This document shows positions 46,087-50,735 of a stretch of 64,000 nucleotides of DNA, piece after piece. The notes beneath the pieces were generated by a model. The model was given only the letters and a program-made list of their open reading frames with translations. It ran no database searches and was not told the origin of the DNA. Made by a program: the position numbers and the translations under genes. This DNA is from an uncultured Candidatus Binatia bacterium (GTDB lineage Bacteria; Desulfobacterota; Binatia; UBA9968; JAJDTQ01), in contig OZ251459.1 of NCBI GenBank assembly GCA_965242525.1, forward strand, positions 3,776,001 through 3,840,000. The letters run 5' to 3'. Positions within the stretch are counted from its first letter, which is position 1. Each line of letters opens with the position of its first letter.

Positions 46087-49000
46087 GTGCCGAACTCGTT
46101 GACGGATCCCATGGAAGTATTCACCGGCGTGCTTGAAGACAAGCGGCCGCTGGTGCTGTTCGCCGGCCAGAGTCTCGACACGGCCAGCGACGCCATACTT
46201 GGAACGCTCCTTGCCCGACTTGGCTGCGCGGAGCGCGGCGCTGGATGGCGAGCAGCCATCGAGCAGGGCATGGGTGCATCCGACATGGAGTGGCTGTCCG
46301 AACGGTTCGACCGAAGCGTGCCATCCGACCCCGCCTCCCGAATTTTCGACGTCCCATGGAGCGCGGTGTTCACCTCGTCCATCGACCCCCACTTTGCGCG
46401 GCGGTTCGAGACCCGCGGGCGGCAGCCCGAGCCGGTGCTTTCCAAGGATGCCTACCCGAGGGTTCCTCGTAGCCGTTCGAGGCCGCCAATCCACTATCTC
46501 TTCGGTAAAGCCGACGAAACCGTAGATGAGGCGCGGGCGCCCGGAAGTCAAGGCAGTCTGACGCGCCGCCTCAGCCTTCACGCCACGGCGCTGGTCAACC
46601 GTATTGCGGAAACTGCGACTGTAGGCGGCCTGGTGGTCATAGCCGGCTACGACCCGATTGGGGATTGGCTGCCGATGGACTCCCTGTTGGCGCCCTTGTA
46701 TGGCCAGGCCGGCCCCAAGGTCCTGTGGTTCGGCCGTGCCGACAAACCGGACTCGGACCTCGCTGACGAGATGCTGGTGTCGGGGTCGCTCGTGGTGACG
46801 CCGGAGACCCTGACGAGCGCAATCGCACAGCTCGAACTCCGCGGCGTGCTCGATGTTGCAGGATCCGCTGCCCCGGACGAGCCGGGCATGGTGTCCATCG
46901 CCAAGGGGGCGGTACTGGACATCACGCCTGCCCTGCGGCTCCGAGTGGAGGCTTCGGCGTCCATCGTCGATGACACATGGACGGAAGAGCCGGAGTCACT
47001 GGACGGTTTCGAGTTGTATGGCGCCTTTCGCCGATTCCACGGCGCCCTTGGCAACTTCAGGTCGCTGGTGGAGGGGGTGGCGCGCGGGTTTGCGGTAGAA
47101 CGCGAGTTCGAGCGTACCCTTTGGAATACGGTGGAGAAAAAGCTGGATCGGCTTCGGCAACCCGACTCCGACGACGTGGTCGTCCTGCACGGGCAGTCAG
47201 GCGCCGGAAAGAGCATCGCGCTTGCGCGGTTGACCCGGAGGATCCGTCGTGAGCGGTGCCTGCCTGTTCTGGCGGCGACGAACCGGATACCCCATCCCCA
47301 GGACGTCGAAGCATTCTGTCAGGAATCCGAGCGCTTGGGGGCCACGACGGTTCTGGTCTGTGACTCTAGCCAACCTCCACAACGCTATGAGGACCTGGCG
47401 TCCGCCTTGCGGAGTCGTGGACGGCGGTTGCTCATTGTCGGCACGTGCTATCGCCTCCCCGACAGGAGCCGTTCGAATCGACTAGTAGAGGCGCCAGCCC
47501 ACGTCTCGGAGGCCGAGATGGCGGCGTTCACAGAACTGTCGAACAGGTTCGACTTGCCCCCTGACATCGCTGATACCGACACGAACTCCATTTTCGCCAT
47601 GCTGTACCGCCGATTGTCCGTCTCGCGCCATCGGCTTGCGGCTGGCGTGTCATCGGAAGCGCGAGCGGCCGAAGGTATGGTGCGGGAGCGGGCGAGGCAT
47701 GCGCCGCGGCCCGCCGCCAACCTTTCTCCCATCGCACTACAGCTAATCAAACTGGGCATCCTCAGCGAGACTTCGCCCTTGTTCGAAGATGATGAAAGGC
47801 TTGCAGCTTCGGGCTTGGACGAGGCTGGACGGTTGATCGATTACGTCATGGCCGCTGGACGGCTGAACAGCGCCATGCCTGTCAACCTCCTGTTTCGGGT
47901 TCTGGGCCACGCCAGCGGATTGCACTCGGACCAGTTCAGCCATCTTCTGGGGGATCTCGATCTCTTCCGTTGGAGACAGGATGAAGAAGGGTCAGACTTC
48001 CTGATCGCTCCACGCATACAACTGGAGGCCGATCTCATATGCAGACGGCGGCTGACGCCGGAACAGGAAATCGAACGGTTGATCGAATTGATCCGCGGTG
48101 TCAGACCTGGAGTGGATCGAGGGAACGAAAAGTCATTCCTACTCGACCTGATGTTCAAGCTGGATCGTAATGGACCAAGAAAAGATGCATACGGTTGCGG
48201 CTACCTGCGGTTTGCCAACGCGCTCAAGGAATTGCGGGAACAGAACGGCATATTCGATGCGGACATCGTCTTACGTGAATGTGCGTTACGATGCCATGCC
48301 GTAGTCCGATCACAAAGCGATCCTGACGTAGATGGAACCGACGATGAACGGCTGGCCATCCTGGATGAGGCCCGCGATACCATCGAAACGACCCTGCGTA
48401 CGATCGACGAGAGGAAACTTCGGGTATCCAGAAGGACGAAGCAAAGCCTCGTTACGGAGCGTTCGACAATATACGGACTCCTCGCCGTTCAGCGTGCACA
48501 GTCCGGCGGCGGGGATTTCTGGTCGGACTATCTCGCCGCCAGAGTAGCGAGCGAGACAGCCCTGGGACTGGGCGGGAACACCTACCCCATCGACATCGCC
48601 CTCTGGACGGCGACGGACGTGCTCGAATGGAAGAAAGGCGAACTGTCGGACGCACAACGAGCCGAGGTATTGGCCGACCTGTATGCAACCATCGACTATG
48701 CAGACTGTGTGTTCAGGGTGAAGGAAGTGTTAAAGGTAAATGCACCGAATACCAAGGCCCCGAACGGCTTGCAGGAAGACAGTGGACCGGACGAGGGCTC
48801 GGTCGCTCCGAATCAAAAGGACTATCTGAAGCGTCGCACCCGTGTTGCATACGCGTTGGGCGACGCGAGAATGAGCAATGAAACGCTGGCCGCATTGGAA
48901 AGCGTCGCACCCGAGGCCGCAACCTTTCTCATTGCAAGGCGGCAGGCAGAGGCAGTCTATGGGAGCGCGCCGCCTTTCAACGGAGAGACCCGCAGCATCG

Positions 49001-49581
49001 CAGCGAAGGCGGCCGACTACCTGTCCGGTCGAAACGACGCCGGAATCTCGCTGGACGACCGTTGCCTCCGTCTCTGGCTCAGGTTGCGATGGGCGCAGGC
49101 AACCGGCGAGCGCCTGATGTTCGACCATCGCGGCCGTACTCCCGCGGACACGGGTCAGATCACCGAGTTGCTCAAGGTCGTAGGCGACCTCAATGAACAG
49201 GCCGGCGCCGATGCACGCAACCGGGAACGGTTCCTCGAAGCGGTGTTGTGCTGGCTCCTCAAAGATACCAGCCACGCGATCAAGATGTGGCAGTCGTTGT
49301 CGCAGGACACCGATTATGAGGACCCATCACGCGTGAAACGATGGCTCGTGCAGACGGACGCCAGCGGTTCTCCGCGTCGATTCCAGGGACGGGTCGAAGC
49401 GAAAGGCGAGGACAACTGGCGAGTTCGAGTGGAAGGCATCGGGAGGCCGATCCTGTTGCGAGGACAGGATTTCCCGAACGAGGACCTAGCCCATGGCCGG
49501 GAACTGCGGGAGATTGGCATCGCCTTCAGCTACACCGGCCCCATTGCTGATCCGCTCTCACGTCCAATGCGGGGACGATGA
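46087..49581 (+). CDS. Large P-loop NTPase (STAND-like) with degenerate SIR2-like N-terminus, helical region and OB-like C-terminus; putative antiphage sensor
   Basis: LVLFAGQ / VFTSSID / HYLFG / VIAGYD follow the SIR2-like motif order; Walker A GQSGAGKS (47191-47214); Walker B VLVCD; beta-rich C-terminus ending IAFSYTGPIA. Confidence 0.65.
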   Translation: MPNSLTDPMEVFTGVLEDKRPLVLFAGQSLDTASDAILGTLLARLGCAERGAGWRAAIEQGMGASDMEWLSERFDRSVPSDPASRIFDVPWSAVFTSSIDPHFARRFETRGRQPEPVLSKDAYPRVPRSRSRPPIHYLFGKADETVDEARAPGSQGSLTRRLSLHATALVNRIAETATVGGLVVIAGYDPIGDWLPMDSLLAPLYGQAGPKVLWFGRADKPDSDLADEMLVSGSLVVTPETLTSAIAQLELRGVLDVAGSAAPDEPGMVSIAKGAVLDITPALRLRVEASASIVDDTWTEEPESLDGFELYGAFRRFHGALGNFRSLVEGVARGFAVEREFERTLWNTVEKKLDRLRQPDSDDVVVLHGQSGAGKSIALARLTRRIRRERCLPVLAATNRIPHPQDVEAFCQESERLGATTVLVCDSSQPPQRYEDLASALRSRGRRLLIVGTCYRLPDRSRSNRLVEAPAHVSEAEMAAFTELSNRFDLPPDIADTDTNSIFAMLYRRLSVSRHRLAAGVSSEARAAEGMVRERARHAPRPAANLSPIALQLIKLGILSETSPLFEDDERLAASGLDEAGRLIDYVMAAGRLNSAMPVNLLFRVLGHASGLHSDQFSHLLGDLDLFRWRQDEEGSDFLIAPRIQLEADLICRRRLTPEQEIERLIELIRGVRPGVDRGNEKSFLLDLMFKLDRNGPRKDAYGCGYLRFANALKELREQNGIFDADIVLRECALRCHAVVRSQSDPDVDGTDDERLAILDEARDTIETTLRTIDERKLRVSRRTKQSLVTERSTIYGLLAVQRAQSGGGDFWSDYLAARVASETALGLGGNTYPIDIALWTATDVLEWKKGELSDAQRAEVLADLYATIDYADCVFRVKEVLKVNAPNTKAPNGLQEDSGPDEGSVAPNQKDYLKRRTRVAYALGDARMSNETLAALESVAPEAATFLIARRQAEAVYGSAPPFNGETRSIAAKAADYLSGRNDAGISLDDRCLRLWLRLRWAQATGERLMFDHRGRTPADTGQITELLKVVGDLNEQAGADARNRERFLEAVLCWLLKDTSHAIKMWQSLSQDTDYEDPSRVKRWLVQTDASGSPRRFQGRVEAKGEDNWRVRVEGIGRPILLRGQDFPNEDLAHGRELREIGIAFSYTGPIADPLSRPMRGR

Positions 49582-50453
49582 CCCCCATCGAGCTCAGCAA
49601 CCTCTACCAAACGCTTCGCACTCGCGTTTCCATCCACTGCCCGGACGGTTGCGCCGAGATCTCACTGCGGTTGCCATCCGATTTCGACGGTGAGTTGGCG
49701 TTCTATCGTCTGGTCATGTGGGGACATGCCCTCGTCAACGAAGCGGCTAGGGTCCCCCTTGCCTTCCTCGCGAAGTTGCCGCCGCTCAAGGCCAACCGTT
49801 CGTTCCGCGACGAAACGTCCCGATTGCGAACCTACCTGACCCACAACCTGGGTCTCAACAAGGCGCGGGATCAGGGGACTCACGCCTTCGTTCATCGTTG
49901 GTTCAGGGAGGCGTGCGAGTACGGCAGTCCCGAGGGCGCCGCCCATTACGCCGCTTGTTGTGACTGCCTCGCCGGCAGGCTTCGGGAATTGCTCGACGGC
50001 GCGATTGCGGCCTGCGACCTGCTCGATGATCCGGAGGATGGTCCAAGACTCGTTGCCGACCTCAGGGGACGCCTGGAAGTCGATTGGGAAGCGTCTCGTT
50101 TCGATCCGCTGGTCGAGAAGTGCTCGGTCCGATTGGGCGATCCGGGCATCAACCTGAAGGGGCTCCGCGGAATGCATCTCGAAAAGTGGCGCCAAACGCT
50201 TTCTCAAGCCGACGAGAACGAACGCGAGCGCGTCCTCGAACAGCGAATCGAAGCCGATCTTCTGGCGGCCATTGGCGATGCCCTGCCCCGGACCGTCCGG
50301 GAGAAGCTGCAACGGGTCGCCGCAAGCGCCGAGGCGACTGTCGCGGCGCTGCTCCTGTTGCGTGAGGCCCGGCGCCTCGGCGCGATGTCGCTGCCGCAGA
50401 TCATCGATTTCGTCAGTTCCCAAGCCACGGGACTTGACGGATCCGAAGCCTGA
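49578..50453 (+). CDS. Hypothetical helical protein with an RxxxxH (HEPN-like) motif
   Basis: ATGA overlap with the upstream NTPase; RTYLTH at 49827-49844. Confidence 0.6.
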   Translation: MTPIELSNLYQTLRTRVSIHCPDGCAEISLRLPSDFDGELAFYRLVMWGHALVNEAARVPLAFLAKLPPLKANRSFRDETSRLRTYLTHNLGLNKARDQGTHAFVHRWFREACEYGSPEGAAHYAACCDCLAGRLRELLDGAIAACDLLDDPEDGPRLVADLRGRLEVDWEASRFDPLVEKCSVRLGDPGINLKGLRGMHLEKWRQTLSQADENERERVLEQRIEADLLAAIGDALPRTVREKLQRVAASAEATVAALLLLREARRLGAMSLPQIIDFVSSQATGLDGSEA

Positions 50454-50735
50454 GCTTGCCGTCTGCTCGTAATCGAAGTTTTATGAAATAACTCCAACCC
50501 ATTGATTTTACTAACTTTTGTTACCATCAACCGTCCTTTCTCCTCAAAGGGAAAGTGACGCCGCGGGTGCCGTAGGAAGCACATGGGCGCGCCCGGATCC
50601 GTTCAGGGTCAAGGTAGGGGAGAGAGGAAACGCCGTCTTGGGCCATCCTGAGAGACTGGGAGGTGTCTCTGGGGGTCAGGGTTGGCTGCTAGTACTTTGA
50701 CCCCGCGTGCCGCATGGTGGTAAAGTAGGCGGAAC

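Follow-up and report, generated by a model that had tools for sequence, protein, structure and literature searches.

A two-gene unit pairing a SAMD9/Avs5-like STAND protein, its SIR2-like domain apparently retired, with a co-inherited helical partner: a candidate split conflict system in a Binatia bacterium

Here we describe two adjacent genes, gene 1 and gene 2, that occupy positions 46087 to 50453 on the forward strand of a 64,000-nucleotide stretch of DNA from an uncultured Candidatus Binatia bacterium (contig OZ251459.1, positions 3,776,001 to 3,840,000; the whole stretch is called the window below). We propose that the pair is a split SAMD9/Avs5-like conflict system, likely anti-phage, whose separate, RNA-directed effector is encoded by the second gene, a reading to which as a whole we give a probability of roughly 0.5. 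By its modelled fold the product of gene 1 is a STAND protein of the SAMD9/Avs5 kind whose SIR2 domain has been retired, the product of gene 2 is a helical protein with three invariant residues, and the two genes are a conserved, co-inherited and horizontally moving unit found across at least eight phyla. The parts of this reading do not all carry the same weight: a role of the pair in conflict or defence is probable, gene 2 is on balance expected to be its output, an identity of gene 2 as a metal-independent RNase of the HEPN or HEPN-like type falls a little short of even odds, and RNA, possibly tRNA, as its target is a more tentative suggestion still. The features on which the argument draws are as follows.

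46087..49581, + strand: gene 1, SAMD9/Avs5-like STAND NTPase by fold search, GTG start, 1164 residues (open reading frame, homologs, fold search)
46087..47076, + strand: predicted inactive SIR2-like (iSIR2) alpha/beta domain, residues 1-330 (model; SIR2_2 neighbours of homolog P0399)
46372..46386, + strand: TSSID, residues 96-100, TTNYD counterpart with Ser at the catalytic Asn position (homolog alignment; sirtuin register)
46468..46488, + strand: RSRSRPP, residues 128-134, basic motif invariant in the window's clade (homolog alignment)
46495..46506, + strand: YLFG, residues 137-140, K-x-H-G counterpart with Phe/Leu at the catalytic His position (alignments)
47101..47451, + strand: P-loop NTPase core of nSTAND5 type, residues 339-455 (PF25199 matches; model strands)
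47191..47214, + strand: Walker A GQSGAGKS, residues 369-376 (sequence, conservation)
47350..47364, + strand: Walker B VLVCD, residues 422-426 (sequence, D426 conservation)
47452..48051, + strand: poorly modelled region, residues 456-655 (model confidence mostly below 50)
48064..49311, + strand: helical-repeat (TPR-like) region, residues 660-1075, putative sensor (model helices; TPR-type fold matches)
49339..49554, + strand: C-terminal five-stranded beta domain, residues 1085-1156, OB-like by position (model strands; SAMD9 collinearity)
49578..49581, + strand: ATGA start/stop overlap, translational coupling (sequence; overlap kept in 21 of 25 loci)
49578..50453, + strand: gene 2, all-helical partner protein, ATG start, 291 residues, putative effector (open reading frame, family, model)
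49578..49916, + strand: N-terminal four-helix core of gene 2, residues 1-113, holding the invariant triad (model; conservation)
49740..49742, + strand: codon of E55, invariant acidic residue in helix 2 (conservation; model)
49827..49844, + strand: RTYLTH (Rx4H), gene 2 residues 84-89 (conservation; model; HEPN description in PMC3710099)
49938..50276, + strand: middle helical domain of gene 2, residues 121-233 (five helices, model confidence about 86-98)
50283..50429, + strand: small C-terminal helical module of gene 2, residues 236-284, apparent degenerate counterpart of the CCA-adding-enzyme tail, PF13735 (relatives' matches)
50454..50735, no strand: AT-rich spacer of 282 bp after the pair (GC profile)

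The pair is compositionally foreign to its surroundings and was horizontally acquired. Its GC content is 0.620 against 0.665 in the rest of the window, and GC at third codon positions (GC3) is 0.71 and 0.74 in genes 1 and 2 against 0.90-0.94 in four flanking genes. Pfam assigns the upstream neighbours, all of them housekeeping genes, to biotin carboxylase, BCCP, TatC and TatA_B_E, and the downstream ones to a Hist_deacetyl-family gene and FabF, which agrees with the initial annotation of this stretch, where the pair had been described as lower in GC and inserted between tatA/B and the deacetylase. The ATGA shared by the stop codon of gene 1 and the start codon of gene 2 can be read directly in the sequence, as that annotation had it; the five gene 1 motifs that it had singled out (TSSID, YLFG, GQSGAGKS, VLVCD and, at residues 1146-1154, AFSYTGPIA) all lie where it had put them; and the start codons of both genes fit the N-termini of their homologs.

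The linkage of the two genes, which had been reported from this one locus, recurs elsewhere. One scan of species-representative genomes returned 27 loci spanning Binatia, Latescibacterota, Acidobacteriota, Gemmatimonadota, Chloroflexota, Myxococcota and alpha-, beta- and gammaproteobacteria. In 25 of them gene 1 is followed immediately by a gene 2 homolog, and gene 2 sequence is present in 26; the 27th (L027) ends inside gene 1 at a contig end, and no locus contradicts the linkage. The four-nucleotide start/stop overlap is kept in 21 of 25 loci, the exceptions being an 11-nucleotide gap (L001), a 4- or 7-nucleotide overlap (L011), a 1-nucleotide overlap (L020) and abutting genes (L024). Two copies are damaged. 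A locus in a Caldilineaceae metagenome-assembled genome (L025, 4100-6492) is decayed: residues 3-764 of gene 1, which carries a frame break, join the last 38 or so residues of gene 2, a sign of an internal deletion; and a Latescibacterota locus (L014, 10001-14037) has frame breaks in both genes, which could reflect either pseudogenisation or sequencing error.

Not only do the two genes occur together, they also diverge together. Pairwise identities of gene 1 and gene 2 correlate with r=0.987 over 105 locus pairs, and with r=0.963 over the 21 pairs formed by seven distant loci. Quick maximum-likelihood trees of the 22 intact pairs, for which branch support was taken from the Shimodaira-Hasegawa-like approximate likelihood ratio test (SH-aLRT) only, contain the same two main clades of 15 and 7 rows, and each of the six branches that are well supported for gene 2 is found again for gene 1. 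The trees also cut across phyla: one sister pair joins a Myxococcota with a Chromatiaceae locus (support 100), another a Chloroflexota with a gammaproteobacterial one (support 99 in the gene 1 tree), and four changes are required on the tree to account for the five Pseudomonadota rows. GC content of the pair is below that of its flanks in 16 of 19 loci (mean difference -0.045), and aligned gene 1 homologs share 52-90% identity. Word-indexed searches gave 448 homologs of gene 1 at E<=1e-3 and 136 of gene 2, and an exhaustive profile search extended the latter to 623 representatives (clustered at 50% identity) at E<=1e-3, 476 of them at E<=1e-10.

Along the N-terminal 330 residues of gene 1, GQ (27-28), A-x-F-T-x-x-x-D-P (93-101), hYLFG (136-140) and G-Y/F...DW (187-194) follow one another in what we take to be the motif order of SIR2_2. 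The data support a SIR2-type fold in which both catalytic positions have been replaced. At position 98, the counterpart of the catalytic Asn, each of the 15 aligned diverse homologs has S, T or G; at position 139, every aligned homolog has F or L in place of the His of the SIR2 K-x-H-G motif, which is catalytic. The fold is assigned on account of three observations, namely the structural neighbours of a homolog, the register with sirtuins and a match to an inactive-sirtuin family. The homolog P0399, which is 47% identical to gene 1, has SIR2_2 families in nine of its ten ESM Atlas structure rows, with template-modelling (TM) scores to SIR2_2 clusters of 0.60-0.69 over 247-285 residues, values that belong to the homolog's model rather than to the window protein's own domain; its neighbours include clusters pairing SIR2_2 with nSTAND5. 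A profile of the N-terminal domain, compared with the PDB sirtuins 9v12 and 9v0g at a non-significant E=0.55-0.71, lays TSSID on TTNYD, and YLFG on VIKFHG of 9v0g (E=0.71, likewise not significant). Finally, the Pfam family iSirtuin (Inactive Sirtuin, PF24403) is matched by one of ten gene 1 homologs at E=0.005. Pfam SIR2_2 (PF13289) has no match at E<=1 in the window's gene 1 or in ten homologs, and a word-based search with the N-domain profile among proteins of 181-606 residues found no stand-alone SIR2 protein and returned only fragments of the same family. The SIR2-like motif order with altered catalytic positions, which the initial annotation had perceived in the letters, is thus borne out by the homologs.

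This domain is also the best-conserved part of gene 1, with a peak at residues 91-120 and with G27, Q28, T96, D100, R112 and R128 invariant. The basic motif RSRSRPP is invariant in 38 of 38 close homologs, R128 also in the diverse sets, and it overlaps a segment (residues 117-129) that is modelled with a predicted local distance difference test score (pLDDT) below 50; such a conserved basic loop might contact nucleic acid or a partner.

The STAND NTPase follows. The nSTAND_NTPase5 family PF25199 scores 31.2 bits on the window's gene 1, under its cutoff of 34, and the cutoff is reached by six of ten homologs (34.0-41.5 bits); a precomputed PF25199.2 label is carried by P0123, the window's own protein, and by most homologs, so that nSTAND5 membership holds at the level of the family and is borderline for the window sequence. 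Within Walker A, H368, G369, Q370, S371, G372, G374 and K375 are invariant in 14 diverse homologs, and D426 of Walker B is nearly invariant. An AlphaFold2 model built on a 14-sequence alignment is of moderate overall quality (pLDDT 70.2, predicted TM score, pTM, 0.48) with clear domains: after the alpha/beta domain of residues 1-330 come a P-loop core at about 360-455 with strands at 364-368, 394-397, 421-426 and 448-453, a poorly modelled stretch at 456-655, helical repeats at 660-1075 and a beta domain at 1099-1156. The helical and winged-helix subdomains of STAND proteins would be expected in residues 456-655, a stretch that includes residues 481-510, among the most variable of the protein. 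The repeat helices have pLDDT values of 75-94 except for a low-confidence break at 880-906, and the most variable stretch of gene 1, residues 871-900, lies inside this region.

The C-terminal domain consists of five strands (1099-1106, 1111-1115, 1121-1124, 1139-1148 and 1151-1156; pLDDT 76-87), and the long helical region and beta-rich tail predicted in the initial annotation are thereby seen in the model. Pfam has no match for this domain, and the sole sequence match obtained for the C-terminal 230 residues in a PDB profile search was to PAN at a non-significant E=0.44, in a region that presumably holds PAN's OB domain. We call the domain OB-like, by its position and strand count only; SAMD9, with which gene 1 is collinear, has an OB domain at its end (PMC13600222).

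What ties these parts together is the fold of the whole protein. Foldseek comparison of the gene 1 model with the PDB gave five hits at E<=1e-3, of which the first is human SAMD9 (9zjv_A, E=1.6e-13, probability 1.00, 1304 columns, identity 12%) and the second the Avs5 filament (9nc9_D, E=6.1e-7, probability 1.00, 1010 columns, TM 0.15/0.21), while the other three, like the lower ranks, are for the most part helical-repeat proteins of TPR type. The STAND, helical and beta parts deduced earlier from the letters are all present, and the whole protein resembles two known ones in fold. The antiviral human proteins SAMD9 and SAMD9L have a SIR2-like domain, a NOD/P-loop module, helical repeats and a C-terminal beta domain in the same order as gene 1, and in both SAMD9 and gene 1 the SIR2-like domain is non-catalytic. 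They differ in that SAMD9 carries an N-terminal AlbA_2 tRNase and a SAM domain on the same chain, whereas gene 1 starts at the SIR2-like domain and a separate gene follows; furthermore, the identity is 12%, the TM score 0.22 and no similarity was detected at the sequence level. PDB profile searches with full-length gene 1 did not return the SAMD9 chain at E<=10, and Avs5 likewise went undetected by profiles; taken over full-length gene 1, its N-terminal domain, its C-terminal 230 residues and gene 2, these searches gave nothing significant beyond the P-loop and a borderline match of the CCA-adding-enzyme-like tail of gene 2 described below, with sirtuins and PAN below threshold.

Avs5 shares with gene 1 the succession of a SIR2-type domain, a STAND NTPase and helical repeats, and the Walker residues K379 and D426 that PMC11897194 describes for EfAvs5 have nearly the same numbers as K375 and D426 here. 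However, Avs5 is a single gene with an active SIR2 NADase, whereas the Asn and His equivalents are lost throughout the present family; the NTPase of PaAvs5 is of the nSTAND3 type according to the text of PMC12931631, that of gene 1 of the nSTAND5 type; and gene 1 exceeds Avs5 by some 300 residues, has a beta domain at its end and comes with an obligatory partner gene. The pair accordingly falls outside Avs5, since it has no active SIR2 and consists of two genes, and outside the SAMD9 family proper, since it has neither AlbA_2 nor homology at the sequence level. The parallel with SAMD9, like the CCA-adding-enzyme-like tail of gene 2 and the TIR and PNP fusions reported below, is a feature beyond those of the initial annotation.

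Gene 2 matches no Pfam, NCBIfam or PADLOC family. Its AlphaFold2 model is confident (pLDDT 89.9, pTM 0.80) and all-helical, in keeping with what had been deduced from its letters together with the motif RTYLTH, which is present at residues 84-89. Among 115 diverse representatives, whose mean column identity is 30% and which go down to 17% identity to the query, the sole invariant columns are E55, R84 and H89. R84-x4-H89 is kept in 115 of 115, R84 is followed by Thr in 109, H89 by Asn and then Leu in 97 and 103, respectively, and position 58 is R or K in 87 (E-x2-[RK]). It is this conservation, and not the mere presence of an Rx4H, that makes the motif significant: in a protein so rich in Arg, at least one Rx4H arose in 53% of 5000 shuffles (mean 0.70), and a second one in gene 2 itself, at residue 97, is unconserved. 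The core helices span residues 3-20, 39-64, 74-88 and 96-113. In the model E55 lies in helix 2 (39-56), R84 near the end of helix 3 (74-88), and H89 opens the loop 89-95 that leads to helix 4 (96-113), so that the three residues appear to sit where the catalytic residues of HEPN proteins sit. The HEPN survey (PMC3710099) describes just such a placement of an Rx4-6H motif together with a second acidic residue; in its account the residue after the Arg is mostly N, D or H and the acidic motif is typically Ex3[KR]. Thr is polar but outside those three commonest residues. On the modelled layout, gene 2 may thus be called HEPN-like in its active site, with the fold unassigned and HEPN membership unproven.

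The C-terminus of gene 2 offers a further hint. The last 60 or so residues of 61 of the 115 members match the C-terminal domain of CCA-adding enzymes (PF13735, tRNA_NucTran2_2; best E=7.2e-7), the scores of individual members seen being at most 21.9 bits against a cutoff of 27, and a profile of the family gives a borderline E=0.012 with the C-terminus of human TRNT1. In CCA-adding enzymes this tail contacts tRNA. In addition, some relatives carry a further domain C-terminal to a complete gene 2 module, TIR_2 in P0265 and P0365 and PNP_UDP_1 in P0328; these three fusions, found among nine atypical-length matches examined out of 150 listed relatives (623 in total), retain the Arg/His motif, and their position 55 is acidic. 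Other relatives vary in different ways: P0322 and P0333 have an insertion of about 85 residues, without a Pfam family, between core helices 2 and 3, just before the Rx4H helix; in P0299 the C-terminal portion of a gene 1 homolog and gene 2 form a single open reading frame; and in a homolog of 405 residues (L022, 13426-14640) the last 110 or so residues, including the CCA-tail-like module, are tandemly repeated.

Three open reading frames on each side of the pair were surveyed at 18 of the 27 loci (102 open reading frames), and defence or mobile-element genes flank the pair in seven. Strong defence-gene matches stand near it in three: PtuA of Septu (5e-132), a mad2-like methyltransferase and a SNF2-type helicase beside the pair of L019 (12077-15374), a type III methyltransferase and a GajB-like/NERD-UvrD helicase in L018, and a DUF499/HmaC-type ATPase (1e-205) beside that of L021 (7096-10197). 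Mobile-element genes occur in five, namely IS110 (L002), an integrase fragment (L013), IS4 (L018), Rha, resolvase and RNase H (L020) and IS66 (L024). Loci of the Latescibacterota type share MR_MLE upstream and PhyH downstream, which suggests vertical inheritance after acquisition. L019 and L021 resemble defence islands, which may hold further uncharacterised genes.

A mechanism compatible with these data would run as follows. Gene 1, a STAND switch that binds ATP, would sense a trigger with its helical repeats and C-terminal beta domain, and its dead SIR2-like domain would serve as an assembly or docking platform, as does the SIR2-like domain of SAMD9. Gene 2, made in step with gene 1 by way of the ATGA overlap, would dock on the N-terminal platform once this has assembled; HEPN RNases act as dimers, and proximity or dimerisation could be what activates it. 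Assembly of gene 1 would in this manner license gene 2 to cut tRNA or other RNA, and translation would stop in the infected cell. We suggest that gene 2 cuts RNA because the HEPN-like Glu/Arg-x4-His layout is combined, in most relatives, with the CCA-enzyme-like tail, and that it docks on the N-terminus of gene 1 because the place occupied by the tRNase in SAMD9 is empty here and a separate protein is co-translated. The accounts given of the two structural relatives would fit such a scheme: in EfAvs5, ATP binding and filament formation via the SIR2 and NOD domains turn on the effector (PMC11897194); in SAMD9 the SIR2-like domain is described as having no NAD lid and as unlikely to bind NAD, SIR2/SIR2 and OB/SIR2 contacts are required for antiviral activity, and the tRNase is flexibly attached at the N-terminus (PMC13600222); and both SAMD9 and Avs9 are reported to kill through an N-terminal tRNase-type domain (PMC12680541). 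A bolder form of the idea, which we regard as doubtful, has gene 2 as a new metal-independent RNase fold, either a HEPN derivative that has diverged beyond the reach of Foldseek and HMMs or a convergent Glu/Arg-x4-His site, aimed at tRNA by its tail and activated by docking on the dead SIR2 domain. If that were true, the pair would be a bacterial two-piece version of the SAMD9 logic of sensing and then cutting tRNA, and a SIR2 domain could be seen to leave its duty as an NADase for the role of a platform that recruits an effector.

A number of results weigh against a split system of this kind. Most of them concern the nature of gene 2, for which the HEPN-like label of the initial annotation held up in its sequence and topological hallmarks but not in its fold. 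Despite the confident model, no structure in the PDB matched at E<=1e-3 (best E=0.85; no row listed exceeds a TM score of 0.21), nor did any viral model in BFVD (best E=0.35), and no HEPN entry appeared among the matches listed for either, with the whole 291-residue model rather than its 113-residue core as the query. A Pfam HEPN family was met in only one of 24 members (HEPN_Swt1, E=0.13), and none stands among the 25 listed of the 63 Pfam families matched by the 115 members; moreover, the acidic motif upstream is E-x2-[RK] and not the Ex3[KR] of the survey. The CCA-tail module is degenerate in the window's own gene 2, where it has no Pfam match and low pLDDT; in the window's clade L236 and P237 are kept and the Gly-x-Asp and Pro-Gly-Pro positions are lost. 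As regards gene 1, the TM scores of its only moderate model to SAMD9 and Avs5 are low (0.15-0.23), which is to be expected given that these are multi-domain proteins in different conformations, and the protein is unusually conserved along its whole length, without a hypervariable sensor. As for the loci, 11 of the 18 surveyed, and the window itself, have housekeeping neighbours and no defence or mobile gene within three open reading frames; tblastn searches of plasmids with gene 1, gene 2, the gene 1 of L020 and P0304, and of phages with gene 1, found nothing, and the plasmid matches of P0265 run through its TIR part only. Two candidate supports also had to be given up. An RnlA-type HEPN identity for gene 2 was rejected at an hhalign probability of 0.2% between the family profile and E. 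coli K-12 RnlA, the nearest named ESM Atlas cluster of a gene 2 homolog being RnlA-type with a score of only 0.76; and the PADLOC matches of a neighbouring protein in L001 (mad3, mad8, AriA) belong to an ABC-transporter ATPase next to MlaE and were discounted as cross-hits.

How, then, could the same data be explained otherwise? Gene 2 could be an adaptor or regulatory subunit of the STAND protein rather than a nuclease, with a Glu/Arg/His site whose ligand is, for instance, an RNA end or a nucleotide, killing being left to fused TIR or PNP domains where these exist and elsewhere to some unknown factor. The failure to detect a HEPN or any other nuclease fold or family would be no surprise on such a view, P0265, P0365 and P0328 do carry a separate, typical effector on a complete module, and the CCA-tail module suggests binding over catalysis. 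We nevertheless hold an adaptor to be unlikely: with three fusions seen among the nine relatives examined of the 150 listed, no other candidate effector is at hand for most members; three polar residues that stay invariant at 30% mean column identity are the pattern of an active site, whose topology in the model matches that of HEPN; and gene 1 has lost its own effector residues, so that some other output is needed.

The split conflict system also has to be set against readings in which the pair does something else altogether. A module of the cell's own RNA or tRNA surveillance, or of its stress response, that employs a STAND switch would account for the housekeeping neighbours in the window and in the Latescibacterota loci, where they are conserved between genomes (MR_MLE, PhyH), for the high conservation of both proteins (52-90% identity among aligned gene 1 homologs), for the lack of a hypervariable region and for the absence of any plasmid or phage match. 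It is hard to reconcile, however, with the patchy distribution across phyla and the well-supported cross-phylum sister pairs, with host-atypical GC and GC3 and the decayed copies L025 and L014, with defence or mobile genes adjacent in seven of 18 loci, with SAMD9 and Avs5, both antiviral, as the closest structural relatives, or with TIR and PNP fusions, which are typical of conflict systems, and we consider it quite improbable. The least probable explanation is that the SIR2-like domain still functions, as a sensor of the NAD or ADP-ribose type or as a non-canonical catalyst, and that gene 2 is its inhibitor or immunity partner in the manner of a toxin-antitoxin system. The best-conserved stretch of gene 1 (91-120) does fall in this domain, together with the six invariant residues listed above; the SIR2 fold has been retained, and canonical SIR2_2 plus nSTAND5 proteins are likely ancestors. 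On the other hand, the Asn counterpart is S/T/G and the His F/L in 15 of 15 homologs, whereas the mutation N141A is reported to abolish defence by EfAvs5 (PMC11897194); no Pfam SIR2 model matches gene 1; the counterpart domain of SAMD9 is, as said, described as unlikely to bind NAD (PMC13600222); and the invariant triad of gene 2 would be left unexplained.

The pair was regarded in the initial annotation as undescribed, and no PADLOC model matches it: neither protein hits any family at E<=1 in PADLOC-DB v2.0.0, nor in NCBIfam. A description of the pair was not found in the literature on nSTAND, HEPN, SIR2 and inactive sirtuins, a clade of this kind being possibly listed among the 589 STAND clades in the supplements of PMC12803255. 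Several known systems nonetheless resemble it in part. Avs9 and Avs6 have a bacterial SAMD9 core whose SIR2-like domain is not named as the effector in the description given by PMC12680541, that role being assigned to AlbA_2 in Avs9 and PNP in Avs6, but they carry the effector fused at the N-terminus, and in the present pair the candidate effector is a separate gene with a different, unmatched fold; this comparison is by description only. Swt1-like HEPN domains (Abi2/Swt1 clade, Npun_F6454 type) fused to a STAND ATPase, TPR and S1 show the same combination of Rx4H, STAND, repeats and an OB-type domain (PMC3710099, Table 1) but are, again as compared by description only, single fused proteins without a SIR2-like domain; by analogy, this fused HEPN, STAND, TPR and S1 architecture of the 2013 survey may be counted a conceptual precedent. 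Proteins of the ESM Atlas that combine SIR2_2 with nSTAND_NTPase5 have the same N-terminal fold and NTPase family (rows 4 and 10, TM 0.61-0.65), one cluster of 271 members having SIR2_2 in 98% and nSTAND5 in 67%, but they are still matched by the SIR2_2 Pfam model, presumably because they are still active. A functional analogy only is offered by PrrC and RloC, described in PMC3710099 as NTPase-controlled Rx4H RNases that cut tRNA in phage infection, in that they belong to another ATPase class and are fused proteins, and no homology was found.

STAND/Avs proteins are the bacterial counterparts of the NLR immune receptors of animals and plants. In this light, a large family (623 gene 2 clusters at 50% identity, at least eight phyla) appears to have lost its built-in SIR2 NADase and to have passed the output to a separate protein. 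If this were confirmed, the three-residue site of gene 2 would define a new effector class with a clean active site, and the workings of the non-catalytic SIR2-like domain in human SAMD9 and SAMD9L, two proteins whose mutations cause disease, could be studied in a tractable bacterial counterpart. It would also mean that split systems like this one are missed by STAND surveys that class clades by in-protein effector domains: the Avs papers describe effectors fused at the N-terminus, and the 2026 STAND survey, as far as its text goes, sorts clades by in-protein effector domains or context (PMC12803255).

At the edges of the insert, no flanking direct repeats of note were seen around the pair, the window holds no tRNA gene, and no Rfam family lies in its 44-52 kb portion. 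Between 45800 and 50800 neither a sigma-70-like promoter upstream of gene 1 nor a terminator after gene 2 was found; the sole sigma-70-like site there, at 50697-50726, lies in the spacer after gene 2 and faces the deacetylase gene. GC content falls to 0.60 in this 282-bp spacer (50454-50735) in a region of otherwise roughly 67%, and the spacer may be the downstream edge or scar of the insertion. The window's gene 1 is present in the protein collection at 100% identity (P0123), while the best entry for gene 2 reaches only 90%, which suggests that the source record either lacks an annotation of gene 2 or gives it a different start.

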